64,000 nucleotides of DNA from Candidatus Babeliales bacterium (GTDB taxonomy: Bacteria; Babelota; Babeliae; Babelales; JBFXEV01), in assembly GCA_050179755.1 (NCBI GenBank), contig JBFXEV010000001.1, forward strand, positions 395,567-459,566. Reading direction: 5' to 3'. A program made the translations under genes and the position numbers. Positions 1-39,309 of this stretch are shown here, piece after piece. The notes under the pieces are model-generated. The model made no database searches and was not told the DNA's origin. It saw only the letters and a list, made by a program, of their open reading frames with translations. How positions within the stretch are numbered: the stretch's first letter is position 1; each line of letters starts with the position of its first letter.

Positions 1-65
1 ATGCTGATGAAGTGATCAAGCGGGTGCTCATGGCATCTAAAGTAGTGAAAGCTTCTGAATCGTGA
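1..65 (+). CDS. 3' end of an unidentified upstream gene (partial, runs off the window)
   Basis: The frame is open from the window edge (..ADEVIKRVLMASKVVKASES*). Its TGA at 63-65 overlaps the GTG start of the next gene (GTGA junction). Too short to name. Confidence 0.3.
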   Translation, partial: ADEVIKRVLMASKVVKASES

Positions 66-1171
66 CCAAAAAGAAGCGCATTCTAACAATTGGTGGCGCT
101 ACTGAAGATATCTTTCTTGACTATCAACAAGCGCAGACAATGCTAATCAATACTAAGCAGGGGCAACGCTCCTGCTTAGTGCTTGAAGAAGGCGCAAAAC
201 TAGAAATAAATCAACTTACGTATACTACCGGCGGCGGTGCAACCAATTCTGCTACGTCATTTGAACGGCAAGGCTTTGATGTCACGGCATGTTGCAAATT
301 AGGCCTCGATGTGCAAGGCCAATACATTAAAGAACAACTTATCACTAATAACATAGATACTAAAGCGGTATCTTTTCATGAAACTATACCAACCGGTCTT
401 TCATGCATCATAAAAGCACCCAGCGGCAATCATACTATTCTTGCCTATCGCGGTGCAAATACAACACTCAAAGCAAGCGATATCCCTTTTGATATGTTTA
501 AAAATATGGACCTGCTTTATGTCACCTCTCTTTCGGGAGAATCTTCAAAGCAGCTTGGTGTTATTATTGAAAAAGCATTAGCAGCAAAAGTTCCCGTGGC
601 ACTTAACCCTGGCGCCAGCCAACTTGCCTCATGCACCAAAGGATTGTGCACAGCACTCTATGGCATTGATATACTTATTTTAAATGCTGATGAAGCAAAA
701 ACTTTTTTATATGCGCTTATGCAAAGTGATGAGAATTTGAAAAAAGAACTTACACAAAAAGCACCCGGTATAACAAACATTGGAGAACTTTCTCAAGAAA
801 GTATGTACAAAGACATGCACTTTACCATCGAGCGTTACTTTAAGATTATTCTTTCTCGTGGCACACGTGTTGCGGTAGTAACTAATGGTGCAGAAGGTGT
901 GTATGTGGCCACCAAAGATACCATGTATTTTCATAAAAGTTTGCCCGCAACCGTAATTAATACCGTTGGTGCTGGTGATGCGTTTGGCTCTACCTTTGTA
1001 GGTTCGCTCGCAGCTGACTATTCTTTAGAAGAAGCTATTGTACGCGGTATACTTAATGCCGTCTCAGTGATTAGTTCCTTAAACGCAAAAGATGGTTTAT
1101 TGAATGCACGAGAACTTGATCAACGGCTTAAAGATGTTGGCATTGCGGGGATATCAACGTTTTTGCTCTAA
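62..1171 (+). CDS. PfkB/ribokinase-family carbohydrate kinase
   Basis: 369 aa. N-terminal 'TTGGGATNSA' and C-terminal 'NTVGAGDAFGSTFVG' (the DTxGAGD-type PfkB signature). GTG start is coupled to the upstream stop. Confidence 0.8.
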   Translation: MTKKKRILTIGGATEDIFLDYQQAQTMLINTKQGQRSCLVLEEGAKLEINQLTYTTGGGATNSATSFERQGFDVTACCKLGLDVQGQYIKEQLITNNIDTKAVSFHETIPTGLSCIIKAPSGNHTILAYRGANTTLKASDIPFDMFKNMDLLYVTSLSGESSKQLGVIIEKALAAKVPVALNPGASQLASCTKGLCTALYGIDILILNADEAKTFLYALMQSDENLKKELTQKAPGITNIGELSQESMYKDMHFTIERYFKIILSRGTRVAVVTNGAEGVYVATKDTMYFHKSLPATVINTVGAGDAFGSTFVGSLAADYSLEEAIVRGILNAVSVISSLNAKDGLLNARELDQRLKDVGIAGISTFLL

Positions 1172-1647: not shown

Positions 1648-2046
1648 ATGTTGTGTGTTATAGCATTACTGGCCGTTTTAGGCTTAAGCATATCTCTCTA
1701 TTCTTTTTGGGTTGATCGCAAGTTGCTTCATGACGCCACGTATAAGCCAATGTGCGATTTATCAGACAAAGTTTCTTGTTCAAAGCCATTCTCAACGCCA
1801 TATAGTGAAGTGCTGGGCATATCAAATACGGTCATTAGCATAATTTTTTATACCAGCATGTTTTGGCTTGCAATGGGTTGTTTTTCTAGATCATTGTTTT
1901 TAGGAGCATTAATCTCGGTTGTTGCTTCTATCTATTTGGCATATCTTTTATTTTTTAAAATAAAATCTTTGTGCCTTATTTGTGTATCGCTTTATATTGT
2001 GAACATTCTATTGCTCATTGCAACATATTATAATCTCTATTACTAA
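1648..2046 (+). CDS. VKOR (vitamin K epoxide reductase) family membrane protein
   Basis: 132 aa with about 4 TM helices. Loop cysteine pair 'CDLSDKVSC' and TM-embedded CxxC 'CLIC' are typical of bacterial VKOR homologs. Confidence 0.7.
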   Translation: MLCVIALLAVLGLSISLYSFWVDRKLLHDATYKPMCDLSDKVSCSKPFSTPYSEVLGISNTVISIIFYTSMFWLAMGCFSRSLFLGALISVVASIYLAYLLFFKIKSLCLICVSLYIVNILLLIATYYNLYY

Positions 2047-2055
2047 GGATCTTCT

Positions 2056-2499
2056 ATGTTTTCTAAAATAAAATCATGGTTTTGTAGTGAATCACTGTTT
2101 TCAAAAAACCTTGGACTTTCGGTAATCCGTATTGGTGTTGGCCTTATATTTATAGTGCTTGGTGCAGGAAAGTTAATGGCCGGACCAGAAAAATGGCAAG
2201 ATCTTGGCTTAATGACCCAATACGTAGGCATTTCCTTTTGGCCAAGCATGTGGGGCCTTTTGGGTGCATGTGCTGAATTTTTTGGTGGTATTGCATTGCT
2301 TATTGGATTTGCAACACGCGCTGCCGCTCTTGCCATTGCTTGTGTAATGATTGTGGCAACCGCATGGCATCATGGAAATGGTCATCCATTTATGCAAACT
2401 GCCTACCCGCTTTCATTGCTTTTTGTAATGATTGGGCTAATGATTGCTGGTGGCGGTAATTTTTCTGTTGATCGCTATATACATAGAAACAAGAAATAA
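2056..2499 (+). CDS. DoxX-family membrane protein
   Basis: 147 aa with 4 predicted TM helices. The 'RIGVGLIFIVLGAGKL' / 'AEFFGGIALLIGFATR' pattern is typical of DoxX. It starts 10 nt after VKOR, so the two are probably an operon. Confidence 0.65.
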   Translation: MFSKIKSWFCSESLFSKNLGLSVIRIGVGLIFIVLGAGKLMAGPEKWQDLGLMTQYVGISFWPSMWGLLGACAEFFGGIALLIGFATRAAALAIACVMIVATAWHHGNGHPFMQTAYPLSLLFVMIGLMIAGGGNFSVDRYIHRNKK

Positions 2500-2503
2500 A
2501 ATC

Positions 2504-2541
2504 AAGAAGGGCATGCTCTTAACAAAGAACATGCCCTTCTT
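2504..2541. terminator. bidirectional intrinsic-terminator-like hairpin
   Basis: Perfect 12-bp stem: aagaagggcatg (2504-2515) pairs with catgcccttctt (2530-2541). It lies between the convergent DoxX gene and the small Cys-rich gene and has A/T-rich flanks. Confidence 0.6.
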
Positions 2542-2558
2542 AAAAATTATAACGTCAG

Positions 2559-2714
2559 TTACTTAGCCATTGGATGCTTGTCGTTTTTGCATTCTTTGCA
2601 AGGATGCGAGTTTTTACAGCCGCATTTGCAATCACTGCATTTTTTTGTACAAGCTTCACATGACTTACACATTTTACCTGCTTTGCAGGTACAATTATTA
2701 TTTGAACGTTCCAT
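2559..2714 (-). CDS. metallothionein-like small cysteine-rich protein (51 aa), absent from the ORF track
   Basis: Hand translation: MERSNNNCTCKAGKMCKSCEACTKKCSDCKCGCKNSHPCKECKNDKHPMAK*. 12 Cys arranged as CxC/CxxC. An AGGAGG RBS lies 6 nt upstream of the ATG at 2714. Paralog of 2874..3032. Confidence 0.6.
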   Translation of the reverse strand: MERSNNNCTCKAGKMCKSCEACTKKCSDCKCGCKNSHPCKECKNDKHPMAK

Positions 2715-2873
2715 AGGAACCTCCTTTCTTTTGAGTCAGTTTGTATTAAAACTGACAACTTTACACAATACATCTTCCCATACTTTAGATATATCAAATT
2801 CAGCTAGCAAAAGTAAAGCGTAAAGGTACAAATCCTTAAAAACACTCAAAGCAGCCGATGCTCTCAAGAGTGA

Positions 2874-3032
2874 CTATTCTGGCTGGGCATAAGGATGACT
2901 ACATGTTCCACAGTCATTGCATGGGTGTGCACTATTGCACCCACAATCGCAATCTTTGCATCTTTGCGGGCAACTATCGTGCACTTTGCATACTTTACCA
3001 GTGCCACAATTGCAATTACCTGAACGTTCCAT
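2874..3032 (-). CDS. metallothionein-like small cysteine-rich protein (52 aa), absent from the ORF track
   Basis: Hand translation: MERSGNCNCGTGKVCKVHDSCPQRCKDCDCGCNSAHPCNDCGTCSHPYAQPE*. 12 Cys. An AAGGAG RBS lies upstream of the ATG at 3032. A hairpin plus T-run follows the stop on the minus strand (about 2838-2873). Confidence 0.6.
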   Translation of the reverse strand: MERSGNCNCGTGKVCKVHDSCPQRCKDCDCGCNSAHPCNDCGTCSHPYAQPE

Positions 3033-3119
3033 TATAAACACTCCTTTTTATGATAAATACCTTATGCTCTAGATATAGCAAACTGCTGTGGGAGGGTAAA
3101 GAGTTATGATAGAAAAAGA

Positions 3120-3737
3120 TTAAAAAGACTGATTTTGCGCCAAAAAGCTCAGCAACTTTTTAACTGCTGCAACCCTATGGGACTTTGCGCACGACTGCCC
3201 CATAGTAATAAGCTGGGTAATGGTCTTTCCAAATTCAGGGAGCACAAAAATGCTGCAGTAGGGAAAATCGGGAATATGGGGTGTTTCTGGTTGCTTTCCT
3301 ATCAATCCTTCTCGCACACCGTCAAACGTATGCACGTTGCCAGCAGGATCGGCAAGCGCGAGCACACAAGTAAAACGAGCAGTGCGATCTTGTGCAGGCA
3401 CACCTTTTAATTTTTCTAGAATAAAGGCCCGTTTTTGATCATCAGTCGCATTATCGCCTGCATAACGCCGTGAATAAATGCCAGGCTCACCACCTAAAGC
3501 ATCAATTTCTAAGCCTGAATCATCGGCAAGCACCATATGGCCCGTCATAGAGGCATACGTTTTTGCTTTTAAAATAGCATTTTCTTGAAACGTAGTTCCT
3601 GTTTCATCCACATCATGGGTGATACCCAATTGTGTTAATGAGACCAAGTTAAATCCTGAATCTGTAAGCAAATTCTTAAGTTCTGCAAATTTTGCTGTGT
3701 TGTGTGTTGCAATAACTAATGTTTTGTTGTTGTTCAT
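3120..3737 (-). CDS. rdgB: non-canonical purine NTP pyrophosphatase (RdgB/HAM1 family)
   Basis: 205 aa with Ham1 motifs 'ATHNTAKFAEL', 'TFQENAILKA', 'ADDSGLEIDALGGEPGIYSRRYAG' and a C-terminal 'SHR'. Confidence 0.85.
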   Translation of the reverse strand: MNNNKTLVIATHNTAKFAELKNLLTDSGFNLVSLTQLGITHDVDETGTTFQENAILKAKTYASMTGHMVLADDSGLEIDALGGEPGIYSRRYAGDNATDDQKRAFILEKLKGVPAQDRTARFTCVLALADPAGNVHTFDGVREGLIGKQPETPHIPDFPYCSIFVLPEFGKTITQLITMGQSCAKSHRVAAVKKLLSFLAQNQSF

Positions 3738-4100
3738 AATTAAAATCCTAAAAAATTGAAGCGCATAGCGCGAAATTCTTCGTAGCCAAAAAAGTTACAG
3801 GTAACTTTTAAAATCATCAACTATTCCGGCGAAGTAGAAATAATTGACCCACAGGGGAATAACCCTGAAAGGTACCTAAAAAAAGCAATTTTGAGAGGGA
3901 AATTGCGAAATACTCGCTGTGAAAGACCTGTGAGAAACTTTGTTCAAAATTATACCAGATTAATACTATATGTCAATAACAAGATGAGTCCCGGGCTATT
4001 ATCCTTAACCATTTTACCATTAAAACCTACTTTGAATTTCGACCATATCAAATACAAAACATCCTTGAATTTTAACCAAATTACAGGGGTAGCTATCAAA

Positions 4101-5451
4101 TGAAACGAATAATCGATTATTATCTAAAAAATTGGATCTCAGATCCCCTGCGGCAGCCCTTAATCTTAAAAGGCGCACGGCAAGTAGGCAAAACCCATGC
4201 TACCCGTGAACTGGCAAACATCTTTTGAAAGATTTGTTGAGGTCAACTTTGATCAACTACCTGCGGCTCGTCTTATCTTTGAAGAAGATTTAAAGCCCGA
4301 ACGAATAATAAGAGATCTTTCGTTACTCACCAAAAAAGATATCGTTCCTGGCTCAACTCTTTTGTTCTTTGATGAAGCGCAAGAGGCTCCCAAAGCACTT
4401 CAATCACTCCGCTACTTCTATGAAGAAATGCCTGACCTCCATATAATCGCTGCAGAGCTCCCTTCTTGATTTCACTATTGAAAAAATCGGCGAATCAGTT
4501 GGCCGTGTTGAATCACTCTACATGTACCCACTTTCTTTTATTGAATTTCTTGCAGCACTTGAAGAATACTCTCTCATTCAAGAAATTCTTGTCCATGAGC
4601 TTACTACGGAGCTCTCAACGCCCATTCATGAAAAATGTCTGCGTCTTGTTGCCGAGTATCTTGCCTTAGGCGGCATGCCCGCTGTAGTAAATTGCTGGCT
4701 CACATTCAAGACTCCTCGTCATTGTACAAAAATTCAAAAACGTCTTCTTAATTCTTATAAGCAAGGTTTTAGCAAATATGCAAAAAAACATCAGATTGAA
4801 TATGTTTCTATGCTTTTTAAAGAAGTACCTCGTCAATTAAGTAAAAAATTTAAATATAATGATATTGAAGGTGATTATCGCAAACGGGAACTTCAGCCAG
4901 CACTTAATCTTTTAGAAATCGCAGGCATTATTCACAAAGTATATGACTGTGCGGGCCAAGGAATGCCTCTTGGTGCTCAAATTGACAGTAATGATTATAA
5001 AACTATCTTTCTTGATGTAGGACTCATCCAATCAGTGCTTGCTCTTGACCTTACTGATTGGTTCTTAAATCCATTTAATGAATTTATAAATAAAGGAGCT
5101 CTTGTACAGGCTTTTGTTGGACAAGAATTACTTGCTTACAGCGATCCGCTTGAAAAGAGCGACTTGTATTATTGGCACCGTAATGCTCCCTCTAGTGTCG
5201 CCGAAATTGATTATCTCATTCAACAAGACAATCACATTATACCGGTTGAGGTAAAAAGTGGAGCAGGCACAACGCTCAAAAGCATGCATACTTTCCTTAA
5301 GGATCATCCATTCTCTCCTTATGGTATTCGATTTTCAGCCCAAAATTATTCTATTATGGATAACATTCACTCATATCCATTGTATGCGCTTGCAAAGATT
5401 GCATGCACAGGGCATCACGATATTAAAAAGTCTATTGAGGCACTTTTATAA
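4101..5451 (+). pseudogene. frameshifted AAA ATPase (AAA_14/DUF4143 family), paralog of 17439..18782
   Basis: It begins MKRIIDYYLKNW..GARQVGKT, collinear with the intact paralog. Homology then jumps frame twice, near 4222-4228 (premature TGA at 4226) and near 4454. Three track ORFs (4197.., 4466/4522..) together cover one gene. Confidence 0.8.
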
Positions 5452-5500
5452 TAAGGCAACACCTCACACGTTAACTCTTCTCCTTTTGCTTTATCTTTAA

Positions 5501-7029
<1,529 letters not shown>

Positions 7030-8265: not shown

Positions 8266-9981
8266 TTATGGTTTATTAAGAATTTCCAGAATACCATCCC
8301 AACGGGTTTTATATTTCCGCTGCAAATTGTTCCATATTGCTTGCGCTTGTTTAGTGTTCATAACAGACAATTTTTTAAACAACCAATCAATATCCCATAT
8401 ACGTATTGTATTGTCATTTGCGGCTGAAACAAGCTTGTTGTCAGAAGTTGCGCATAATAACTGTACAGTCTTTTCATGACCCTTACAGACTACAAGCTTT
8501 TTACCCTGTGTATTCCATACGCATATTGTACGATCAAAAGATGCTGAAACAATCTTATTATCATGCGTTACACAAACCCTATAAACCACATCTGTATGGC
8601 CGTTACACACTGCAAGTTGGTTCCCTTTAATATCCAGTATGCGCACCGTGTTATCTTGCAAACCTAAGACTATTTTATCATCAGGCGTTATGCATAGTGG
8701 CATAACATAACTTTTAGAATCGCTATATATACCATATTGATTACCTTGTATATCCCAGATGCATATTGTTTTAGGATTAAACGGTGAAACTATTTTATTT
8801 TCTGAGGTTACACATAATGAGTTGACAGAATTTGTATAACCATTGAACATGGTGCGTTGAGTGCCATCCAGATTCCAAATGCGTACGCTACCATCATCAG
8901 AATTTGAAACTATCGTTTTGCCATCTTGGGTTACACATACGGATGCAATAAATCCTGTATGACCCTCGCATAGCGCACTTTGTACGCCGTTCATATTCCA
9001 CACACGTACGGTCGTATCACAAGACCCTGAAATTATCGTTGTATCATCGTCTGTTATACACATTGACTTAATGGCATCGGTATGACCATTACACACAGCG
9101 TGTTGAGTGCCATCTATATTCCATATACGAATCGTACCATCTCTAGATCCTGAGACAATTTTATTATTACGGGTAATACATATTACATTAACGCAATCCG
9201 TATGCCCTCTACATATCGCATGCAGGATGCGATCCCTATTCCATATACAAAGCGTGCCATCTTCAGATCCTGAAACTATCATACCATCGTCAGTTATACT
9301 TATTGCCCTAACTCGATTTGTATGCTCATTGCGTATAACGCCACCTTGCTTACCATGCATCGGGCCCAAAATACAAACCATTTGATTTGCAATAATAAGG
9401 TTTCGAATTTCTGGAGGCAAGCTAGCAATTTTATCAAAAGGAATCTTTTTAACATTCATTTCTTTTGCAGCATCAATTGTCAATGCTAATTCCAAAAGAA
9501 GTGGAATATCCAAATAATTTGCTGCTATAATAAAGTCTATAAACGCAACAATATCAAAGGTTTGTATTTTAGCAATAATTTCTTGCTTAATAATATTTTT
9601 TTCTTCTTGATGGTCAGGTTGATCTTTAAATCTGGCAACTAACGGTAATAAGTCGTGAATCTTTTGCCATATAGATGCAGTAATAGTAGGAAGTGGAATT
9701 GCGTTATGCACCGTGTCATTTGCTGCATCTTCCAGTAAATTCTTGATTGTCTCAGATAATTTTAGAAGCTTATCTGGAACTTTAAAATCTTTGCCATCTT
9801 GAGTGGTGATAGTGGAATAATCCTCACTTTCCTGAACTGGCTCCATCCGCCGTTGCTCCTCTGGAGCGATGGCGCGATTGATATCACGACATAGCAATGG
9901 CGAAGTCGGATCCATCCCAAATGCAGAGCTTGCTCCGCATACTGCACCAAGTAATAAAATTAGTATATTTTTCTTTAACAT
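8266..9981 (-). CDS. exported Skp1-like (BTB-fold) domain / WD40 propeller fusion, paralog 1 (8 divergent blades, no C-terminal anchor)
   Basis: Signal peptide MLKKNILILLLGAVCGASSAFG. Skp1-like blocks 'ITTQDGKDFKVPDKLLKLSETIKNLLED', 'NAIPLPTITASIWQKI' and 'IIAANYLDIPLLLELAL'. Eight 'GHT..V..vc.T.d.kIVSGS.D.T.R.W' repeats follow. Confidence 0.75.
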   Translation of the reverse strand: MLKKNILILLLGAVCGASSAFGMDPTSPLLCRDINRAIAPEEQRRMEPVQESEDYSTITTQDGKDFKVPDKLLKLSETIKNLLEDAANDTVHNAIPLPTITASIWQKIHDLLPLVARFKDQPDHQEEKNIIKQEIIAKIQTFDIVAFIDFIIAANYLDIPLLLELALTIDAAKEMNVKKIPFDKIASLPPEIRNLIIANQMVCILGPMHGKQGGVIRNEHTNRVRAISITDDGMIVSGSEDGTLCIWNRDRILHAICRGHTDCVNVICITRNNKIVSGSRDGTIRIWNIDGTQHAVCNGHTDAIKSMCITDDDTTIISGSCDTTVRVWNMNGVQSALCEGHTGFIASVCVTQDGKTIVSNSDDGSVRIWNLDGTQRTMFNGYTNSVNSLCVTSENKIVSPFNPKTICIWDIQGNQYGIYSDSKSYVMPLCITPDDKIVLGLQDNTVRILDIKGNQLAVCNGHTDVVYRVCVTHDNKIVSASFDRTICVWNTQGKKLVVCKGHEKTVQLLCATSDNKLVSAANDNTIRIWDIDWLFKKLSVMNTKQAQAIWNNLQRKYKTRWDGILEILNKP

Positions 9982-10068
9982 GTTATAACCCTTATATCCG
10001 AATCAGTTTCAAAACTGAGACGGGTTTAGCCCGAAGTAGCTAACTTTTATTAGCGAAGACGGGCCCAT
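9982..10068 (-). repeat. conserved 87-88 nt inter-paralog spacer, copy 1
   Basis: gttataacccttatatccgaatcagtttcaaaactgagacgggtttagcccgaagtagctaacttttattagcgaagacgggcccattt. It is nearly identical at all four junctions. It contains short dyads (tcagttt/aaactga, gctaa/ttagc, gcccg/cgggc) and the RBS of the downstream paralog. Confidence 0.8.
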
Positions 10069-11706
10069 TTAATTATTTGAATTATCACTTGTAAGCCACT
10101 TGTATGCACACCAGCCAAATATCCCAAGAGCTGCTCCTACACCAAGTACTAATGCTGCTCTTTGAATCACCATTGTTGGCTCTTTCTGAACCTCATTATC
10201 TACTGCTAATCCAAGAATCTTCTTAATTCCATTCCAATCTTTTTGGTTCTCACCTTGCAAATAGTTCCAAATTTCTCTCGCTTGCTGAGCGCTTATTTGA
10301 GACAGCCAGTTAACATCCCACACGCGCACGGTGCGATCTACAGATCCTGAAACTATCTTATTGTCAGAAGTTGCACATACTGAAGTAACAGAATACGGAG
10401 TATAGAGATTGCAAACGCTCAGTTGATTACCTGCCATATCCCATATTCGCACGGTACCTATAGATCCTAAAACTATCTTATTGTCAGGAGTTACACATAC
10501 TGAGCTAACATAATCTGTATGGCCATTGCAAACGCTCAGTTGATTACCTGCCATATCCCATACTCGCACGCCGCCGTGATTAGCTCCTGAAACTATCTTA
10601 TTGTCAGACGTTACGCATACTGAATAAACCGAATTAGTATGGCCATTGCATACGCTCAGTTGATTACCTGCCATATCCCATACTCGCACGGTGCGATCTA
10701 TAGATCCTGAAACTATCTTATTGTCAGGAGTTACGCATACTGAAGTAACCTGATTTGTATGGCCATTACAAACACTCAGTTGATTACCTGCCATATCCCA
10801 TACTCGCACGGTGTCATCAACAGCTCCTGAAACTATCTTATTGTCAGGAGTTACACATACTGAATTAACCCAATTTGTATGGCCATGGCAAACGCTCAGT
10901 TGATTACCTGCCATATCCCATACTCGCACGGTGTCATCAACAGCTCCTGAAACTATCTTATTGTCAGGAGTTACACATACTGAATTAACGCCACATGTAT
11001 GGCCATGGCAAACGCTCAGTTGATTACCTGCCATATCCCATACGCGCACGGTGCCGTCATAAGATCCTGAAACTATCTTATTTTCAGGAGTTACACATAC
11101 TGAGCTAACATAATCTGTATGGCCATTGCAAACGCTCAGTTGATTACCGGGCACGGGTCCTAGTAAACGAGTCATCTGCCCTAACGTAATGGGGTAACGA
11201 ATTTCCCTTGGCAATCCAGCAATCTGTTCAGAAGTAATATTTTTAATATCAGTTTGTTTTGCAACATCAATTGCCAACTCTAACAAAAGAGGAATATCCA
11301 AATAATTGGTTGCTGCAATAAAATCCATAAGATCGGCACCATCAAATGCCTGTATTTGCGCCTTAATTTCTTGCTTAATGGCATCTTTTTCTTTTTGATG
11401 GTCCACAGGTTGCTCTTTAAAATTCTCTACTAACGGTAATAAGCCTTGAATCTTTTGCCATACAGACGCTGTAATAGTAGGAAGTGGAATTGCATTATGC
11501 ACCGTGTCATATGAAGCATCTTCCAGTAAATTCTTGATCGTCTCAGATAACTTTAAAAGAGTATCTTGAACTGTAAAACTTTTACCATCTTGCGTGGTGA
11601 TAGTTGAATGATCCTTAGATTCTTGGAATTGACTTTCCATCCCAAATGCAGAGCTTGCTCCGCATACTGCACCAAGTAATAAAATTAGTATATTTTTCTT
11701 TAACAT
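10069..11706 (-). CDS. exported Skp1-like / WD40 fusion, paralog 2 (7 blades, C-terminal TM anchor)
   Basis: Same signal peptide and Skp1-like region. Seven near-identical 40-aa blades 'NQLSVCNGHTxxVxSVCVTPDNKIVSGSxDxTVRVWDMAG'. The tail 'AALVLGVGAALGIFGWCAYKWLTSDNSNN' is hydrophobic. Confidence 0.75.
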   Translation of the reverse strand: MLKKNILILLLGAVCGASSAFGMESQFQESKDHSTITTQDGKSFTVQDTLLKLSETIKNLLEDASYDTVHNAIPLPTITASVWQKIQGLLPLVENFKEQPVDHQKEKDAIKQEIKAQIQAFDGADLMDFIAATNYLDIPLLLELAIDVAKQTDIKNITSEQIAGLPREIRYPITLGQMTRLLGPVPGNQLSVCNGHTDYVSSVCVTPENKIVSGSYDGTVRVWDMAGNQLSVCHGHTCGVNSVCVTPDNKIVSGAVDDTVRVWDMAGNQLSVCHGHTNWVNSVCVTPDNKIVSGAVDDTVRVWDMAGNQLSVCNGHTNQVTSVCVTPDNKIVSGSIDRTVRVWDMAGNQLSVCNGHTNSVYSVCVTSDNKIVSGANHGGVRVWDMAGNQLSVCNGHTDYVSSVCVTPDNKIVLGSIGTVRIWDMAGNQLSVCNLYTPYSVTSVCATSDNKIVSGSVDRTVRVWDVNWLSQISAQQAREIWNYLQGENQKDWNGIKKILGLAVDNEVQKEPTMVIQRAALVLGVGAALGIFGWCAYKWLTSDNSNN

Positions 11707-11794
11707 GTTATAACCCTTATATCCGAATCAGTTTCAAAACTGAGACGGGTTTAGCCCGAAGTAGCTAACTTTTATTAGCGAATACGGGTCCACT
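11707..11794 (-). repeat. conserved inter-paralog spacer, copy 2
   Basis: Same sequence as 9982..10068 with a few substitutions. Confidence 0.8.
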
Positions 11795-13618
11795 TTAATT
11801 ATTTGAATTATCACTTGTAAGCCACTTGTATGCACACCAGCCAAGCACGCCAAGAGCGGCACCAGTGCCAAGCGCTACTGCTGCTCTTTGCATTAAACTT
11901 GTTGGCTTAACCTCAGGCTTAGTATCTATTGCCAATCCAAGAATTTTCTTAACGCCGTTCCAGTCTTTTTTGTGATCACCTTGCAAATAGTTCCAAATTT
12001 CTCTCACTTGTTGAGCGCTTATTTGAGACAACCAATTAACATCCCACCCGCGCACGGTGCGCTCATCAGATCCTGAAACTATCTTATTGTCAGGAGTTAC
12101 ACATACTGATCCAACCCAATCTGTATGGCCATTGCAAACGCTCAGTTGATTGCCCGCCATATCCCATACTCGCACGGTGCCATCACTCGCTCCTGAAACT
12201 ATCTTATTGTCAGGAGTTACACATACTGAAATAACCCGATTTGTATGGCCATTGCAAACACTCAGTTGATTACCCGCCATATCCCATACTCGCACGGTGC
12301 GATCACTAGATCCTGAAATTATCTTATTGTCAGGAGTTACACATACTGATCCAACCCAATCTGTATGGCCATTGCAAACGCTCAGTTGATTGCCCGCCAT
12401 ATCCCATACTCGCACGGTGCCATCACTCGCTCCTGAAACTATCTTATTGTCAGGAGTTACACATACTGAGCTAACACTATCTGTATGGCCATTGCATACG
12501 CTCAGTTGATTACCTGCCATATCCCATACTCGCACGGTGCGATCTATAGATCCTGAAACTATCTTATTGTCAGACGTTACACATACTGAGCTAACATTAT
12601 CTGTATGGCCATTGCAAACGCTCAGTTGATTGCCCGCCATATCCCATACTCGCACGGTGCGATCCCAAGATCCTGAAACTATCTTATTGTCAGGAGTTAC
12701 ACATACTGAAGAAACCCAATGTGTATGGCCATTACAAACACTCAGCTGATTACCTGCCATATCCCATACGCGCACGGTGCCATCACTCGATCCTGAAACT
12801 ATCTTATTGTCAGCAGTTACGCATACTGAATTAACCCAATTTGTATGGCCATTGCAAACGCTCAGCTGATTGCCTGCCATATCCCATACTCGCACGGTAC
12901 CATCATGAGATCCTGAAACTATCTTATTGTCAGCAGTTACACATACTGATCTAACACTATCTGTATGGCCATTGCAAACGCTCAGCTGAATACCGGGCAC
13001 GGGTCCTAGTAAACGAGTCATCTGGCCTAACGTAATGGGGTAACGAATTTCCCTTGGCAATGCAGCAATCTGTTCAGAAGTAATATTTTTAATATCAGTT
13101 TGTTTTGCAACATCAATTGCCAACTCTAACAAAAGAGGAATATCCAAATAATTGGTTGCTGCAATAAAATCCATAAGATCGGCACCATCAAATGCTTGTA
13201 TTTGAGCCTTAATTTCTTGCTTAATGGCATCTTTTTCTTTTTGATGATCCACAGGTTGCTCTTCAAAATTCTCTACAAACTGCAATAAGCCTTGAATCTT
13301 TTGCCATATAGATGCAGTAATAGTAGGAAGTGGAATTGCATTATGCACCGTGTCATTTGCTGCATCTTCCAGTAAATTCTTGATCGTCTCAGATAATTTT
13401 AGAAGCTTATCTGGAACTTTAAAATCTTTACCATCTTGAGTGGTGATAGTGGAATAATCCTCACATTCCTGAACTGGCTCCATCCGCCGTTGCTCCTCTG
13501 GAGCGATGGCGTGATTGGTATCACGACATAGCAATGGCGAAGTCGGATCCATTCCAAATGCAGAGCTTGCTCCGCATACTGCACCAAGTAATAAAATTAG
13601 TATATTTTTCTTTAACAT
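11795..13618 (-). CDS. exported Skp1-like / WD40 fusion, paralog 3 (8 blades, C-terminal TM anchor)
   Basis: As above, with 8 blades. It carries the 'DPTSPLLCRD.N.AIAPEEQRRMEPVQE' insert after the signal peptide that is otherwise found only in paralog 1. Confidence 0.75.
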   Translation of the reverse strand: MLKKNILILLLGAVCGASSAFGMDPTSPLLCRDTNHAIAPEEQRRMEPVQECEDYSTITTQDGKDFKVPDKLLKLSETIKNLLEDAANDTVHNAIPLPTITASIWQKIQGLLQFVENFEEQPVDHQKEKDAIKQEIKAQIQAFDGADLMDFIAATNYLDIPLLLELAIDVAKQTDIKNITSEQIAALPREIRYPITLGQMTRLLGPVPGIQLSVCNGHTDSVRSVCVTADNKIVSGSHDGTVRVWDMAGNQLSVCNGHTNWVNSVCVTADNKIVSGSSDGTVRVWDMAGNQLSVCNGHTHWVSSVCVTPDNKIVSGSWDRTVRVWDMAGNQLSVCNGHTDNVSSVCVTSDNKIVSGSIDRTVRVWDMAGNQLSVCNGHTDSVSSVCVTPDNKIVSGASDGTVRVWDMAGNQLSVCNGHTDWVGSVCVTPDNKIISGSSDRTVRVWDMAGNQLSVCNGHTNRVISVCVTPDNKIVSGASDGTVRVWDMAGNQLSVCNGHTDWVGSVCVTPDNKIVSGSDERTVRGWDVNWLSQISAQQVREIWNYLQGDHKKDWNGVKKILGLAIDTKPEVKPTSLMQRAAVALGTGAALGVLGWCAYKWLTSDNSNN

Positions 13619-13705
13619 GTTATAACCCTTATATCCGAATCAGTTTCAAAACTGAGACGGGCCTAGCCCGAAGTAGCTAACTTTTATTAGCGAAGACGGG
13701 CCCAT
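13619..13705 (-). repeat. conserved inter-paralog spacer, copy 3
   Basis: Same sequence as 9982..10068 with a few substitutions. Confidence 0.8.
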
Positions 13706-15346
13706 TTAATTATTTGAATTATCACTTGTAAGCCACTTGTATGCACACCAGCCAAATATCCCAAGAGCTGCTCCTACACCAAGTACTAATGCTGCTCTTT
13801 GAATCACCATTGTTGGCTCTTTCTGAACCTCACTATCTATTGCTAATCCAAGAATCTTCTTAATTCCATTCCAATCTTTTTGGTTCTCACCTTGCAAATA
13901 GTTCCAAATTGCTCTCACTTGTTGAGCGCTTATTTGAGACAGCCAGTTAACATCCCACACGCGCACGGTGCCATCTACAGATCCTATAACTATCTTATTG
14001 TCAGCAGTTACACATACTGAATCAACCCAATTTGTATGGCCATTACAAACACTCAGCTGACTACCTGCCATATCCCATACTCGCACGGTGCCGTCATAAG
14101 ATCCTGAAACTATCTTATTTTCAGGAGTTACACATACTGAGCTAACCCAATTTGTATGGCCATTGCATACGCTCAGTTGATTACCTGCCATATCCCATAC
14201 TCGCACGGTGCCATCATCAGATCCTGAAACTATCTTATTGTCAGACGTTACGCATACTGAATGAACCGAATTAGTATGGCCATTGCAAACGCTCAGTTTT
14301 TGATTGCCTGCCATATCCCATACTCGCACGGTGCCATCATAAGATCCTGAAACTATCTTATTGTCAGGCGTTACACATACTGAAGTAACGCCATGTGTAT
14401 GGCCATTGCAAACGCTCAATTGCTTACCTGCCATATCCCATACTCGCACGGTGTCATCACGAGATCCTGAAACTATCTTATTGTCAGGCGTTACACATAC
14501 TGAGCTAACACTATCTGTATGGCCATTACAAACACTCAGTTGATTACCTGCCATATCCCACACTCGCACGGTGCCATCATCAGATCCTGAAACTATCTTA
14601 TTGTCAGGAGTTACGCATACTGAAATAACTTGATTGGTATGGCCATTGCAAACGCTCAGTTGATTACCTGCCATATCCCATACTCGCACGGTGCCATCAT
14701 AAGAACCTGAAACTATCTTATTGTCAGAGCTTACGCATACTGATCTAACGCCACGTGTATGGCCATTGCAAACACTCAGTTGAACACCAGGCACGGGTCC
14801 TAGTAAACGAGTCATCTGGCCTAACGCAATGGGATAACGAATTTGTCTTGGCAATGCAGCAATCTGTTCAGAAGTAATATTTTTAATATCAGTTTGTTTT
14901 GCAACATCAATTGCCACTTGCAATAACAGAGGAATATCCAAATAATTGGTTGCTGCAATAAAATCCATAAGATCGGCACCATCAAATGCTTGTATTTGAG
15001 CCTTAATTTTTTGTTTTATAGCTTCTTTTTCTTTTTGATGACCCACCGGTTGCTCTTCAAAATTCTCTACAAACTGCAATAAGCCTTGAATCTTTTGCCA
15101 TACAGACGCAGTAATAGTAGGAAGTGGAATTGCATTATGCACCGTGTCATATGCTGCATCTTCCAGTAAATTCTTGATCGTCTCAGATAACTTCAAAAGA
15201 GTATCTTGAACTGTAAAACTTTTACCATCTTGCGTGGTGATAGTTGAATGATCCTTAGATTCTTGGAATTGACTTTCCATTCCAAATGCAGAGCTTGCTC
15301 CGCATACTGCACCAAGTAATAAAATTAGTATATGTTTCTTTAACAT
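13706..15346 (-). CDS. exported Skp1-like / WD40 fusion, paralog 4 (7 blades, C-terminal TM anchor)
   Basis: As above. One blade junction has a 1-codon insertion ('NQKLSV'). Confidence 0.75.
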   Translation of the reverse strand: MLKKHILILLLGAVCGASSAFGMESQFQESKDHSTITTQDGKSFTVQDTLLKLSETIKNLLEDAAYDTVHNAIPLPTITASVWQKIQGLLQFVENFEEQPVGHQKEKEAIKQKIKAQIQAFDGADLMDFIAATNYLDIPLLLQVAIDVAKQTDIKNITSEQIAALPRQIRYPIALGQMTRLLGPVPGVQLSVCNGHTRGVRSVCVSSDNKIVSGSYDGTVRVWDMAGNQLSVCNGHTNQVISVCVTPDNKIVSGSDDGTVRVWDMAGNQLSVCNGHTDSVSSVCVTPDNKIVSGSRDDTVRVWDMAGKQLSVCNGHTHGVTSVCVTPDNKIVSGSYDGTVRVWDMAGNQKLSVCNGHTNSVHSVCVTSDNKIVSGSDDGTVRVWDMAGNQLSVCNGHTNWVSSVCVTPENKIVSGSYDGTVRVWDMAGSQLSVCNGHTNWVDSVCVTADNKIVIGSVDGTVRVWDVNWLSQISAQQVRAIWNYLQGENQKDWNGIKKILGLAIDSEVQKEPTMVIQRAALVLGVGAALGIFGWCAYKWLTSDNSNN

Positions 15347-15433
15347 GTTATAACCCTTATATCCGAATCAGTTTCAAAACTGAGACGGGTTTAGCCCGAA
15401 GTAGCTAACTTTTGTTAGCGAAGACGGGTCCAT
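15347..15433 (-). repeat. conserved inter-paralog spacer, copy 4
   Basis: Same sequence as 9982..10068 with a few substitutions. Confidence 0.8.
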
Positions 15434-17146
15434 TTAATTATTTGAATTATCGCTTGCAAACCACTTATATGCACACCAGCCAAGCACGCCAAGAGCGGCA
15501 CCAGTGCCAAGCGCTACTGCTGCTCTTTGTAACAAATTAGTTGGCTCAACAACCGCTGCTCTTAGCTCCAAATTAGCTGGCTCAACTAATGCTGCTCTTT
15601 GAATCACCATTGTTGGCTCTTTCTGAACCTCATTATCTACTGCTAATCCAAGAATTTTCTTAATTCCATTCCAGTCTTTTTTGTGATCACTTTGCAAATA
15701 GTTCCAAATTTCTCTCACTTGTTGAGCGCTTATTTGAGACAGCCAGTTAACATCCCACACGCGCACGGTGCCATCTACAGATCCTGAAACTATCTTCTTG
15801 TCAGCAGTTACACATACTGAATTAACGAGCTTTGTATGGCCATTGCAAACACTCAGTTGATTGCCTGCCACATCCCATACTCGCACAGTGCGATCTAGAG
15901 ATCCTGAAACTATCTTAGTGTCCGGCGTTACACATACTGAGCTAACACTATCTGTATGGCCATTGCAAACGCTCAGTTGATTACCTGCCATATCCCATAC
16001 TCGCACGGTGCCATCATAAAAACCTAAAACTATCTTATTGTCAGGAGTTACGCAGACGCACTTAACCCAATTTGTATGGCCATTGCAAACGCTCAGTTTT
16101 TGATTGCCTGCCATATCCCATACTCGCACGGTGCGATCTATAGATCCTGAAACTATCTTATTGTCAGGAGTTACACATACTGAGCTAACACTATCTGTAT
16201 GGCCATTACAAACACTCAGTTGATTACCTGCCATATCCCATACGCGCACGGTGTCATCAACAGATCCTGAAACTATCTTATTGTCAGGCGTTACACATAC
16301 TGAAGTAACCCGATTTGTATGGCCATTGCAAACACTCAGTTGATTACCTGCCATATCCCATACGCGCACGGTGCCATCACGAGATCCTGAAACTATCTTA
16401 TTGTCAGGAGTTACACATACTGAAATAACGCTACCTGTATAGCCATTACAAACACTCAGCTGATTACCTGCCATATCCCATACTCGCACGGTGCCATCAT
16501 AAGATCCTGAAACTATCTTATTGTCAGAACTTACACATACTGATCTAACGACACCTGTATGGCCATTGCAAACGCTCAGCTGAACACCTGGCACAGGTCC
16601 TAGTAAACGAGTCATCTGGCCTAACGTAATGGGATAACGAATTTCCCTTGGCAATGCAGCAATCTGCTCAGAAGTTATATTTTTAATATCAGTTTGTTTT
16701 GCAACATCAATTGCCACTTGGAATAACAGAGGGATATCCAAATAGTTTACTGCTGTAATAAAATCCATAAGATCGGCACCATCAAATGCTTGTATTTGCG
16801 CCTTAATTTGTCGTTTTATAGCTTCTTTTTCTTGGTGATGACCCACCGGTTGCTCTTCAAAATTCTCTACAAACTGCAATAAGCCTTGAATCTTTTGCCA
16901 TATAGATGCAGTAATAGTAGGAAGTGGAATTGCATTATGCACCGTGTCATATGCTGCATCTTCCAGTAAATTCTTGATCGTCTCAGATAGCTTTAAAAGA
17001 GTATCTTGAACTGTAAAACTTTTACCATCTTGCGTGGTGATAGTTGAATGATCCTTAGATTCTTGGAATTGACTTTCCATTCCAAATGCAGAGCTTGCTC
17101 CGCATAATGCACCGAACACTAAAATAAATATATGTTTCTTAACCAT
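15434..17146 (-). CDS. exported Skp1-like / WD40 fusion, paralog 5 (7 blades, chimeric C-terminal tail with TM anchor)
   Basis: As above. The tail joins the paralog 2/4 type ('EVQKEPTMVIQRAALV') to the paralog 3 type ('LLQRAAVALGTGAALGVLGWCAYKW'). Its upstream region is unique, so it is probably the first gene of the array. Confidence 0.75.
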   Translation of the reverse strand: MVKKHIFILVFGALCGASSAFGMESQFQESKDHSTITTQDGKSFTVQDTLLKLSETIKNLLEDAAYDTVHNAIPLPTITASIWQKIQGLLQFVENFEEQPVGHHQEKEAIKRQIKAQIQAFDGADLMDFITAVNYLDIPLLFQVAIDVAKQTDIKNITSEQIAALPREIRYPITLGQMTRLLGPVPGVQLSVCNGHTGVVRSVCVSSDNKIVSGSYDGTVRVWDMAGNQLSVCNGYTGSVISVCVTPDNKIVSGSRDGTVRVWDMAGNQLSVCNGHTNRVTSVCVTPDNKIVSGSVDDTVRVWDMAGNQLSVCNGHTDSVSSVCVTPDNKIVSGSIDRTVRVWDMAGNQKLSVCNGHTNWVKCVCVTPDNKIVLGFYDGTVRVWDMAGNQLSVCNGHTDSVSSVCVTPDTKIVSGSLDRTVRVWDVAGNQLSVCNGHTKLVNSVCVTADKKIVSGSVDGTVRVWDVNWLSQISAQQVREIWNYLQSDHKKDWNGIKKILGLAVDNEVQKEPTMVIQRAALVEPANLELRAAVVEPTNLLQRAAVALGTGAALGVLGWCAYKWFASDNSNN

Positions 17147-17438: not shown

Positions 17439-18782
17439 ATGATGAAAAGACTCATAGATTATTATTTATTAGAATGGAAAAACAAACCAAATCATAAGCC
17501 TTTGCTCCTGAGAGGAGCACGCCAAGTAGGGAAAACCTACGCCGTCCGTACCCTCGCAAAAACATTTGAAAACTATATCGAGCTTAACCTTGAATCAAAT
17601 ACTCTGGCTCGTAAAATTTTGTCTGAAGACCTAAATATAGAACGAATCCTGTTACAACTCTCTGAATCTTTTGGTCAACTTACTCCTGGCACCACCTTAT
17701 TGTTTATCGATGAAATTCAACACGTGCCCCAAGCAATTATTGCACTCAGATATTTTTATGAATTTGTGCCAAACCTTCATGTGATAGCTGCAGGATCTTT
17801 ACTAGATTTTGCTATCGAAGAAGTTGGTCTACCTGTGGGCCGTGTAACCATACGCTACATGTATCCATTATCATTTTTAGAATTTTTAGCTGCGTTAGGG
17901 CATAGCCATTGGGTTTTGGCTATTATTTCTGATAAGCCTGTGTTTGAAGAATTACATAAACAAATAATCAATCTTCTGAGCATGTATCTTGCAATCGGAG
18001 GCATGCCTGCAGCGGTCAATAATTGGCAAGAGGCAAAAAATTCACGCGCAGTTAAGGAAACACATACTGAAATTCTCACTGCATATGTAGGCGATTTTAA
18101 TACCTATGCAAAAAAACACCAGCAAAAATACCTCTCGCTTATTTTTGATAGAGCTATGCAACAACTTGCTAGAAAATTTATGTTCGCTCGCATAGGGGAA
18201 TATAAAAAACGAGAACTGGAACCGGCGCTTTTATTGCTTGAAAAGGCTGGTATCATATACCCTATTTATGAAAATAGTGGGCAAGGAATCCCACTAGGAT
18301 CTGATGTAAATTTTGATGATTTCAAAGTTATTTTTTTGGATATTGGTCTTGCGCAAGCACAGCTAAAATTTGATATATCAAGCTGGCTCATTAACCCTCA
18401 AGAAACGATCGTAAATCAAGGTGAACTTGTTGAAGCTTTTATAGGCCAAGAATTACTTGCCTATTCTGATCCTATCAAAAAAGAACAATTATATTATTGG
18501 CGAAAAAAAGTTCGTGGAAGCGATTGCGAAGTTGATTACCTTACACAATTAGGACAAAAAATTATACCAATCGAAGTTAAATCAGGCAGAAGTACTCGTT
18601 TACTCAGCATGCATCGCTTTTTAGAAACACATCCAAAATCACCTTATGGCATTCGTTTTTGGGCAAATACTGAAACTAAAGAAGCCTCTCTGCATTCGTT
18701 GCCATTATATGCAGTTGCTAAACCATTTTTAAACGAACAATCTTATTTAAAACAAGCTCTCATGTTTTTAATTACAGATTAA
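17439..18782 (+). CDS. AAA ATPase with C-terminal PD-(D/E)xK-like module (AAA_14/DUF4143 family), intact copy
   Basis: Walker A 'GARQVGKT' and Walker B 'LLFIDEIQ'. The C-terminal 'CEVDYL....IIPIEVKSG' has a D..ExK arrangement. The RBS GGGAAGG lies upstream. Confidence 0.75.
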   Translation: MMKRLIDYYLLEWKNKPNHKPLLLRGARQVGKTYAVRTLAKTFENYIELNLESNTLARKILSEDLNIERILLQLSESFGQLTPGTTLLFIDEIQHVPQAIIALRYFYEFVPNLHVIAAGSLLDFAIEEVGLPVGRVTIRYMYPLSFLEFLAALGHSHWVLAIISDKPVFEELHKQIINLLSMYLAIGGMPAAVNNWQEAKNSRAVKETHTEILTAYVGDFNTYAKKHQQKYLSLIFDRAMQQLARKFMFARIGEYKKRELEPALLLLEKAGIIYPIYENSGQGIPLGSDVNFDDFKVIFLDIGLAQAQLKFDISSWLINPQETIVNQGELVEAFIGQELLAYSDPIKKEQLYYWRKKVRGSDCEVDYLTQLGQKIIPIEVKSGRSTRLLSMHRFLETHPKSPYGIRFWANTETKEASLHSLPLYAVAKPFLNEQSYLKQALMFLITD

Positions 18783-36013: not shown

Positions 36014-36466
36014 TTATCGTTGTATGCCATAACGCTCCAACACGTTTAAAGAAACACCGCATTCAGGATCTTCTTGCAATACTTCTTGAGCAATTTTTAT
36101 TGCCTCTTCTTTATCAACAAGCTGCTCAGGTATATCATGAAATAAAATCATGAACCGTTTATATTCTATGTTCTTTGGCTCTAATTCACTAGCTCGCCTA
36201 GCATGAAAAAGACCAACGCTGTAAGCTCCATTATAAGCACATAAAGGCATTGCCATAAGATAAGACGCCCATCCGTGTTCTGCAGCACCTTCATGCTTTA
36301 TTAATATGCTAGCCGCTAAGGTATACAAAGTAATATTATGTGTTTTATACGACCATTCTTCTATTCCTTTCGGTAAAACTTCTATATTTGTTATCAAATC
36401 TTTAACTTCATCAATTTTACCTATCATCAACAAATCAATTATTTTTAAATTCATGGTCGCACCCAA
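36014..36466 (-). CDS. TPR-like helical-repeat immunity-like protein, copy 1
   Basis: 150 aa. Its start overlaps the toxin 2 stop by 16 nt. The pattern is helical-repeat. Confidence 0.55.
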   Translation of the reverse strand: MGATMNLKIIDLLMIGKIDEVKDLITNIEVLPKGIEEWSYKTHNITLYTLAASILIKHEGAAEHGWASYLMAMPLCAYNGAYSVGLFHARRASELEPKNIEYKRFMILFHDIPEQLVDKEEAIKIAQEVLQEDPECGVSLNVLERYGIQR

Positions 36467-38925: not shown

Positions 38926-39309
38926 TTACTCTATATCAATTTTAAGGTCACAGATTGCAAAATTCCTTATCATTTCAACAAATATTCGCATATAATAGAC
39001 AGCATCAATATCATAAAAATCACCTATTGATAGGCCCAACTTCCTAATTTCAGGATCACGCGGTGAAGATGCAATATGTATAATATGACCATCTATTTTT
39101 CCTATAATCGAATAGGTCTCATATATATTAATAGACAATAATGCTGCAACTGCATCATCGAGGCTTTCAAATTCTTGATCACATGCTACAGGAAAATATT
39201 TAAATCCAAACCTTATTCCTTGTTCAAGAATATTTTTAAAATTTTGTTTTGTATATGAAACATTTAGTAATATTTCATATGAATAGGCTCTACTCAATTT
39301 ATTCCTCAC
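38926..39309 (-). CDS. immunity-like protein A3 (pairs with 30967..31338)
   Basis: 127 aa. The GTG start overlaps the toxin 3 stop by 11 nt; an alternative TTG lies at 39297. Homologous to A1. Confidence 0.55.
   Translation of the reverse strand: MRNKLSRAYSYEILLNVSYTKQNFKNILEQGIRFGFKYFPVACDQEFESLDDAVAALLSINIYETYSIIGKIDGHIIHIASSPRDPEIRKLGLSIGDFYDIDAVYYMRIFVEMIRNFAICDLKIDIE

Follow-up and report, generated by a model that had tools for sequence, protein, structure and literature searches.

The 64,000-nucleotide stretch of DNA analysed here, hereafter the window, comes from a Candidatus Babeliales bacterium (contig JBFXEV010000001.1, positions 395,567 to 459,566) and carries on its minus strand two tandem mini-genes, geneB (2874..3032) and geneA (2559..2714), whose products are 52 and 51 residues long. 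Both open reading frames (ORFs) are real protein-coding genes under purifying selection. Our favoured reading, which we hold with a probability of roughly 0.55, is that the pair encodes cytosolic, metallothionein-like metal-thiolate proteins that would make up a new small family. This reading draws on a column in which Cys and His replace one another beside columns of invariant His, on the lack of a signal peptide, on a composition that offers no hydrophobic core together with a poorly defined predicted fold, and on the retention of the ligands in the more diverged copy, geneB.

Two short genes and their relatives

The minus strand of 2300..3300 was read for ORFs of at least 30 residues. The two that concern us were recovered exactly as the peptides given in an earlier interpretation made from the letters of the DNA (the sequence-only reading). 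On the minus strand geneB is the upstream gene; its product (MERSGNCNC..., MERSGNCNCGTGKVCKVHDSCPQRCKDCDCGCNSAHPCNDCGTCSHPYAQPE) contains 11 Cys, 3 His and 3 Lys and has a net charge of -1. The downstream gene, geneA, encodes a protein (MERSNNNCTC..., MERSNNNCTCKAGKMCKSCEACTKKCSDCKCGCKNSHPCKECKNDKHPMAK) with 11 Cys, 2 His, 11 Lys and a net charge of +7. The sequence-only reading had credited each protein with 12 Cys, but the actual count is 11 in both. Its description of the two as paralogues is borne out by 49% identity and a BLASTP E value of 9e-16; in the alignment, 10 Cys and 2 His are paired, and Cys19 of geneA stands opposite His18 of geneB. The genes had also been presented as missed, and here the two copies differ. 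No protein collection searched contains geneA. The product of geneB is identical to an NCBI hypothetical protein, AB7F19_03295 (MGE0009543.1, MGE4258360.1), from a Candidatus Babeliales metagenome-assembled genome (MAG), so its absence from the ORF track is due to the 60-residue cut-off of that first stage.

Relatives were found at the level of DNA. A degenerate DNA motif corresponding to C-x2-C-x-C-G-C-x3-H-P-C, with or without a following x2-C, gave 26 + 6 + 1 matches, among which two are real. The first homologue, L015, is a single-copy gene of 57 codons specifying 10 Cys, at 5377..5550 of the 1.87-Mb complete chromosome of a second Babeliales MAG (OY970310.1); its peptide was absent from the protein collections searched. 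The second, L027, lies at 2..124 of the metagenome contig WBZM01104294.1, which begins inside the gene. The remaining motif matches were rejected as homologues, being off-frame and in high-GC DNA. The sequence-only reading had proposed a tblastn or hidden Markov model (HMM) search with both peptides. An exhaustive HMMER profile search of 1.84 billion representative proteins returned geneB itself only, as did word-indexed searches of protein collections, queried with either peptide or the four-member alignment; tblastn against plasmids and phages gave no match, and back-translated peptide patterns run against genome and metagenome contigs yielded nothing that could be confirmed. The two homologues came from the DNA motif.

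The window, L015 and L027 share the same syntenic slot, atpD ... rdgB > mini-gene > terminator < doxX < VKOR. Neighbouring proteins of the three genomes are 65–75% identical and AtpD 89%, which marks the genomes as related. Over 39 aligned residues the L015 and L027 mini-proteins are 92% identical; DoxX and VKOR of these two genomes reach 74% and 67%, respectively. The product of geneA is 70% identical to those of the single-copy genes L015 and L027, which marks it as the conserved, orthologue-like copy. That of geneB is a diverged paralogue that has lost 8 of 11 Lys and gained an extra Cys (C44) while retaining all the shared ligands. The two copies in the window have therefore diverged asymmetrically. 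As far as sequence comparison can tell, the mini-proteins belong to no known family and form a small, previously undescribed one, known to date from Babeliales-type bacteria alone (phylum Dependentiae/TM6).

Short ORFs rich in Cys might arise by chance in a spacer, from TG-rich sequence, and both ORFs are indeed very short. The density of 11 Cys per 45 residues is the maximum in the window, and 30 shuffled versions peak at 6–9; stretches of real window sequence read off-frame, nevertheless, reach as many as 9–10 Cys per 45 residues, so that Cys density by itself is a weak argument. What decides the matter is conservation together with selection at the level of codons, and it is for this reason that we regard the genes as real. 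In a codon alignment of the four family members, the ratio of nonsynonymous to synonymous divergence (pN/pS) was computed from the gap-free block for all pairs in three frames. It is 0.00–0.50 in the Cys frame and exceeds 1 in both alternative frames for every pair. Differences pile up at codon position 3 (4/3/16 at positions 1/2/3 between L015 and L027), and 8 of the 10 invariant Cys columns show synonymous turnover between TGC and TGT. The values for geneA are about 0.10 against the L015 and L027 genes, and those involving geneB are 0.27–0.50. Between the paralogues geneA and geneB, synonymous sites are saturated (pS 0.86, with pN 0.31), yet each shared Cys is kept. The ATG, the Shine-Dalgarno sequence, a promoter-like block and a terminator are in addition conserved in three genomes. 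An origin of these ORFs by chance is effectively refuted by the selection signal.

In each of the three genomes a second frame likewise runs open over the mini-gene, at 2555..2797 (minus, 80 residues) in the window, 5342..5563 (plus, 73 residues) in L015 and 12..140 (plus, 42 residues) in L027. This openness counts in favour of chance ORFs. The overlapping 80-residue frame at 2555..2797 was itself rejected as a gene because its pN/pS exceeds 1, which indicates that the frame is open only through the TGY/AAR-rich codon composition. It may mislead gene callers, and this may be one reason why geneA and the L015 gene are unannotated. Cut-offs for small ORFs and gene callers between them hide such genes: both geneA, the better conserved copy, and the L015 homologue are in no protein collection searched.

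Conserved Cys and His columns and proposed metal ligation

The family alignment comprises geneA, geneB, L015 and L027, the last incomplete at its contig end. Invariant in all four are C9, C15, C21, C25, C28, C30, C32, H36, P37, C38, C41, H46 and P47, along with the non-ligand residues G12, K16 and G31; C7 shows no variation among the three sequences extending over its column. At column 19, geneA has Cys and the other three members have His, an exchange that requires a two-nucleotide change. The resulting ligand consensus, C-x-C-x5-C-x2-[H/C]-x2-C-x3-C-x2-C-x-C-x-C-x3-H-P-C-x2-C-x4-H-P, places 13 potential ligands (10 Cys, 2 His and 1 Cys/His) within about 40 residues. Loss of the Cys columns among homologues had been named in the sequence-only reading as grounds for giving up the idea of a metallothionein (MT); across four members from three genomes, 10 Cys and 2 His prove to be invariant.

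The pattern of exchange is informative about chemistry. Cys and His are interchangeable as metal ligands, not in disulfides, and the Cys/His swap column together with the invariant His therefore points to metal ligands rather than to disulfides. Cys numbers in the three full-length members are 11, 11 and 10, the odd counts weighing further against disulfides. Moreover, the ligands are kept in the charge-reversed geneB, which indicates that selection preserves the ligand set and not the charge.

At the level of sequence, the mini-proteins appear to have every attribute by which an MT is recognised. The product is about 5.5 kDa, and the family members of 51, 52 and 57 residues fall well within the low mass (below about 10 kDa) of MTs. 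Their Cys content of 18–22%, arranged as CxC, CxCxC and CxxC, lies inside the usual range of about 15–35%. With 0–1 F/W/Y and 1–3 I/L/V/M per protein, they are poor in aromatic residues and lack a hydrophobic core, and Lys residues adjoin the Cys. Neither protein has a signal peptide or a hydrophobic segment, and the absence of a signal peptide would leave the thiols in the reducing cytoplasm. AlphaFold2, run without metal on a two-sequence alignment, returned a predicted local distance difference test score (pLDDT) of 51, an apo model uninformative about metal-thiolate clusters; the value and the missing hydrophobic core would fit a fold that depends on metal.

The conserved neighbours offer a different role for the thiols. 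VKOR (1648..2046, plus) and DoxX (2056..2499, plus) do lie beside the mini-genes, as the sequence-only reading had observed, and the adjacency holds in all three genomes. With their very high Cys content, the mini-proteins could act as a cytosolic thiol/redox buffer, or as clients of a VKOR-DoxX thiol/quinone pair, the Cys cycling between thiol and disulfide. We consider this improbable. The doxX and VKOR genes are convergent with the mini-genes across a strong terminator and so are not co-transcribed with them, and since the genomes are related, a common gene order may be no more than inherited. In bacteria the substrates of VKOR homologues are periplasmic, and a signal peptide is missing from the mini-proteins. 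Metal ligation would account for the invariant His and the Cys/His swap column; disulfide chemistry would not. We conclude that the adjacency is conserved synteny and not an operon; a functional tie to VKOR/DoxX was examined as a candidate and ruled out by the convergent orientation and the intervening terminator.

A disulfide-rich peptide that is secreted or delivered to the host, whether an effector, a toxin, an antimicrobial peptide or the precursor of a ribosomally synthesised and post-translationally modified peptide (RiPP), is less probable again. It would suit small, Cys-rich proteins that are confined to a single lineage and belong to an intracellular parasite; ankyrin, WD40 and Ntox35-type proteins are encoded elsewhere in the window. 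The mini-proteins, by contrast, show no signal peptide, no leader/core organisation and no hydrophobic segment; no maturase, radical-SAM enzyme, protease or transporter gene adjoins them, and the RiPP precursor models of NCBIfam are unmatched. The odd Cys numbers and the conserved His columns speak against it as well.

The main rival to an MT-like protein, rather unlikely in our judgement, is a structural zinc-cluster or zinc-finger mini-protein: a tiny basic domain with permanently bound Zn that binds a nucleic acid or a protein partner (compare CXC/pre-SET Zn3Cys9 and zinc knuckles) and is regulatory or architectural, with no role as a metal buffer. Three of the four members are strongly basic (+7, with 10–11 Lys in 40–57 residues), and the C-terminal C-x2-C-x4-H corresponds to the first three ligands of a CCHC knuckle (C-x2-C-x4-H-x4-C). 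The knuckle is nevertheless incomplete, C38-x2-C41-x4-H46 being present but followed by no Cys in any member, and the zinc-finger models of Pfam are unmatched even at E <= 10. MTs usually drift outside their Cys positions; between L015 and L027, 24 of 28 non-ligand columns are identical, and this 86% exceeds the overall identity of DoxX and VKOR. The constraint on non-ligand residues in this pair is unusually strong for an MT-like protein. Metal-homeostasis genes were not found nearby among the approximately 37 window ORFs scanned. On the other side, geneB has lost the basic charge (-1, 3 Lys) while keeping all the ligands and remaining under purifying selection, a density of 13 ligands in about 40 residues exceeds that of ordinary zinc fingers, and Lys beside Cys is also typical of vertebrate MTs. 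A 4Fe-4S ferredoxin-type protein is not indicated either: the motif C-x2-C-x2-C-x3-C-P is absent from the alignment and Pfam Fer4 is unmatched.

Several of these results, and others, weigh against the assignment as an MT-like protein. The strong non-ligand conservation and the charge of +7 are also what might be seen in a protein that binds one particular macromolecule. Among the approximately 37 window ORFs scanned there is neither a metal sensor (ArsR/SmtB, MerR, CsoR or Zur) nor an exporter, and there is no operon link to doxX and VKOR. Pfam and NCBIfam scans with both peptides at E <= 10 gave no match, and thus no MT family model; nor did a PDB profile search at E <= 10, MT chains included. 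The family is tiny, with four members in three genomes, so the comparative evidence is shallow, and the sequence itself comes from a MAG. Finally, the profile resemblance to human MT2A and yeast Cup1 set out below, at P values of about 1e-5 to 1e-7 per single comparison over some 12 comparisons, would fail a database-wide correction. It is a resemblance, which may be convergent CxC spacing, and homology is not demonstrated.

On the MT-like reading, we infer metal binding, its stoichiometry, the identity of the metal and the physiological role from the sequence, and propose the following mechanism. Transcription of each gene would start at its own conserved promoter-like element, and a strong Shine-Dalgarno sequence would direct translation into a polypeptide that would fold only around metal ions. 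The thirteen ligand positions could accommodate about 3–4 Zn(II)/Cd(II), or Cu(I) in greater number. In one arrangement compatible with the alignment to MT2A, C7, C9, C15, H/C18, C21, C25, C28, C30 and C32 of the N-terminal part would form a cluster like that of the vertebrate M3Cys9 beta-domain, M3(Cys8-9, His0-1); in the C-terminal part, H36, C38, C41 and H46 would make a mononuclear His2Cys2 site, H-x-C-x2-C-x4-H. Bacterial and plant Zn-MTs typically include His among their ligands (PMC10612145), a point in favour of Zn, although Cu(I) is also possible. The proteins might then serve in Zn/Cu buffering or sequestration in a bacterium living inside protists, whose vacuoles are known to employ intoxication by Zn/Cu. 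Dependentiae are obligate intracellular parasites of protists (PMC4776705, PMC12172432), toxic Zn2+ accumulates in amoebal vacuoles (PMC7858047), and the mycobacterial MT, MymT, gives protection against Cu (PMC6337107). An old duplication would have produced a basic isoform (+7, the ancestral type) and an acidic one (-1); since neither has lost a ligand, the two may have specialised in metal, affinity or partner.

Expression signals and genomic surroundings

The statement in the sequence-only reading that each gene has a strong ribosome-binding site stands. A Shine-Dalgarno AAGGAG (3041..3046, minus) lies 8 nt 5' of the geneB ATG, and AGGAGG (2720..2725, minus) lies 5 nt 5' of the geneA ATG; AGGAGG is also conserved 5' of the L015 homologue. 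A Shine-Dalgarno-like 5-mer is found at only 10 of the 50 mechanically assigned starts of long ORFs in the window, which places the sites of the mini-genes among the strongest there.

Further upstream, both genes have a promoter-like block. That of geneB (3067..3100, minus) consists of TTTACC (3100..3095), a 17-nt spacer, TGCTATATC (extended -10-like, 3080..3072) and then TAGAG; that of geneA (2783..2817, minus) consists of TTTACT (2817..2812), an 18-nt spacer, TGATATATC (2796..2788) and then TAAAG. The block TTTAC-N17/18-TGNTATATCTA[GA]AG, in its fuller form TTTAC[C/T/A]-N17/18-TG-N-TATATCTA[G/A]AG, is common to the upstream regions of geneB, geneA and L015, the flanking non-coding sequence having diverged. 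Within the window the exact 14-mer TGNTATATCTARAG occurs only at the geneA and geneB upstream sites. A strict sigma-70 consensus scan made no call at either block, where position 6 of the -10 element is C. We interpret the block as a putative promoter made up of a -35-like hexamer and an extended -10 (TGnTATATC). Its presence at both copies indicates that the tandem duplication took the upstream element along, and each copy probably has its own promoter.

At the other end of the unit, a strong intrinsic terminator with a 19-bp stem and a T-run (2502..2543, minus; -30.1 kcal/mol, z = -8.7) follows geneA. The same element, 2543..2502, is common to geneA and the convergent doxX, which meet head-to-head at it. 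Terminator hairpins of other sequence and like structure occupy this position in L015 (-37.0 kcal/mol) and L027 (-27.2 kcal/mol). The sequence-only reading had placed a hairpin and T-run after the 52-residue gene, but it is the 51-residue geneA that the strong one follows. The hairpin with TTTTT 3' of geneB (2838..2872, minus; -10.6 kcal/mol, z = -0.45) is weak and at the level of shuffled sequence, 61 of 200 shuffles folding as well or better; it may be a leaky terminator or functionless. In an Rfam search of 2300..3400 the only matches were sub-threshold and on the terminator hairpin, and no leader or riboswitch was found.

Other elements in the intergenic DNA were considered. An operator palindrome, TGCT-N8-AGCA, in the geneB block, a candidate from a check by eye, was rejected as it is not kept in geneA or L015. 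Relative to geneB, the 5' untranslated region of geneA contains an insertion of about 34 nt with a perfect 8-bp hairpin, GTCAGTTT-taatac-AAACTGAC (2735..2756, minus). As an element this hairpin was likewise rejected: the fold of the untranslated region is at shuffle level (z = -0.21), and neither geneB nor L015 has the hairpin. A terminator-like hairpin with a T-run at 3150..3169 (minus) lies within the last 15 or so codons of rdgB/Ham1, just 5' of the geneB block; it could insulate geneB from read-through out of rdgB, or could be a chance match.

On the plus strand the neighbouring genes encode VKOR, DoxX, a PfkB kinase and a conserved hypothetical protein; on the minus strand, Ham1/RdgB lies upstream of the mini-genes. 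Much further off, the sequence-only reading had pointed to an HMA-domain lipoprotein at 25710. Its lipobox (LAGC) and CxxC are present, but the HMA match scores 21.8 bits against the Pfam threshold of 24.8, and the gene is 23 kb away. The ORF (25710..26084, minus) encodes 124 residues with an LLLAGC lipobox and a GVECRAC motif, only the first 30 HMA positions being matched, and its 3' end overlaps that of a convergent glutamine synthetase ORF. The product is possibly a periplasmic lipoprotein, divergent in sequence, that binds metal.

Elsewhere the window has the gene content usual in Dependentiae, WD40 and ankyrin repeat proteins included (compare PMC4776705). Five tandem ORFs of 545–607 residues lie at 8266..17146 (minus). 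The one scanned (8266..9981) encodes a WD40 beta-propeller, and four of the five have an identical 19-nt upstream stretch, ATTCGGATATAAGGGTTAT; the array seems to have arisen by recent tandem expansion within a family of eukaryote-like repeat proteins. Two minus-strand ORFs of 623 and 693 residues, 36451..38322 and 39299..41380, share an identical upstream sequence, TTTATACATCTAAGGAGCA. The former ends in an Ntox35 toxin domain, and ORFs of about 125–170 residues without a Pfam match adjoin them; the arrangement may be a duplicated polymorphic-toxin/immunity cassette. At 4100..5451 (plus) an AAA_14 + DUF4143 ATPase is spread over three frames (4100..4228, 4197..4469 and 4522..5451) and is probably a frameshifted pseudogene; an intact paralogue is found at 17439..18782, and in L015 the syntenic interval between atpD and rdgB lacks the gene.

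Comparison with known metallothioneins

The family profile was aligned by hhalign with a panel of MTs, with full shuffles that preserve composition and shuffles in which the Cys positions are held fixed as controls. The MT2A and Cup1 sequences were checked against PDB chains. The human MT2A beta-domain scores 31.8 over 25 columns at 44% identity with 7 of 9 Cys aligned, a score reached by 1 of 500 full and 0 of 200 Cys-fixed shuffles. Yeast Cup1 scores 28.3 over 37 columns at 41% identity (0 of 500 full and 2 of 200 Cys-fixed shuffles). Cup1 reversed still scores 23.6, so that much of its signal is Cys spacing. The alpha-domain of MT2A reaches only 13.1, equalled by 200 of 500 full and 61 of 200 Cys-fixed shuffles. 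SmtA (9.3) and MymT (8.6) are matched by 75 and 63 of 100 full shuffles, respectively. Among the remaining panel sequences, Neurospora MT is marginal, its score being reached by 2 of 100 shuffles, and Drosophila MtnA, the lobster and sea urchin proteins, wheat Ec-1 and C. elegans MTL-1 are at shuffle level. The suggestion in the sequence-only reading that the CxC pattern is eukaryotic rather than SmtA-like is thus upheld, MT2A beta and Cup1 outscoring nearly all shuffles and SmtA and MymT failing to do so. In the beta-domain register, C-x-C-x5-C-x-C-x3-C-x-C-x2-C-x-C-x2-C, 7 of 9 Cys align with one 2-residue gap, which suggests a likeness without establishing homology.

A bolder account, which we advance only tentatively, is that the family is the third independent one of bacterial MTs after BmtA/SmtA and MymT and is confined to Dependentiae. 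It would combine an N-terminal Cys register like that of eukaryotic MTs (the vertebrate beta-domain and Cup1) with a C-terminal His2Cys2 site. It would have arisen by convergence or by capture from the protist host, and then been duplicated into basic and acidic isoforms as an adaptation to Zn/Cu intoxication in the host vacuole, with the TGNTATATCTARAG block possibly a target of metal-responsive control. In reviews and in a survey of 2026 the bacterial MT families are still essentially two, Smt/BmtA and MymT (PMC10612145, PMC13519478), and a new family without detectable relatives would, if the assignment is true, widen this picture. The phylum is known almost only from metagenomes, its members all living inside protists, and a true MT would give a concrete handle on how such parasites withstand metal poisoning by the host. 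A basic and an acidic isoform with identical ligand sets would amount to a natural experiment on the tuning of MT function by charge. The interest would be higher still if the protein were a bona fide MT with a eukaryote-like cluster.

With the BmtA/SmtA proteins (PF02069; Zn4Cys9His2 in a GATA-like zinc-finger fold) the mini-proteins share a bacterial and apparently cytosolic setting, a length of about 55 residues, mixed Cys/His ligation with 11–13 ligands, and a presumed handling of Zn. They differ in giving no PF02069 match at E <= 10 and no sequence relationship to SmtA, in lacking the aromatic and hydrophobic core residues of the SmtA fold, and in having no divergent smtB-like repressor gene. 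MymT, a Cu(I) protein, has fewer Cys, is controlled by the Cu sensor RicR and shows no sequence similarity to the family; like the mini-proteins it is small (53 residues, against 51–57), rich in Cys, restricted to one lineage and found in bacteria that live inside phagocytic cells.

In the alignment with Cup1 (PDB 1aqs/1rju) a GCNS motif is shared, and nine Cys of the family pair with Cys of Cup1. CUP1 is known for tandem gene amplification, and tandem copies are a further point in common, in the form of CUP1 amplification on the one hand and the geneA/geneB pair on the other. Cup1 has no conserved His ligands, in contrast to the family, which is also without a Pfam match, and specificity for Cu(I) cannot be inferred from this likeness.

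The vertebrate MTs differ from the family in several respects: it gives no PF00131 match at E <= 10, has no equivalent of the alpha-domain, is bacterial, and has features without counterpart in vertebrate MTs, namely two H-P motifs and three conserved columns that contain His. Lys beside Cys is typical of vertebrate MTs, where it offsets the charge of the cluster. The beta-domain (human MT2A 1–30; PF00131; M(II)3Cys9) nevertheless aligns with the N-terminal half of the mini-proteins, which follows M-x-x-x-C-x-C-x-x-G-x-x-C ... C-x-x-C-x-C, and the two groups of proteins are alike in placing Lys next to Cys, in having no aromatic residues and in their similar size.

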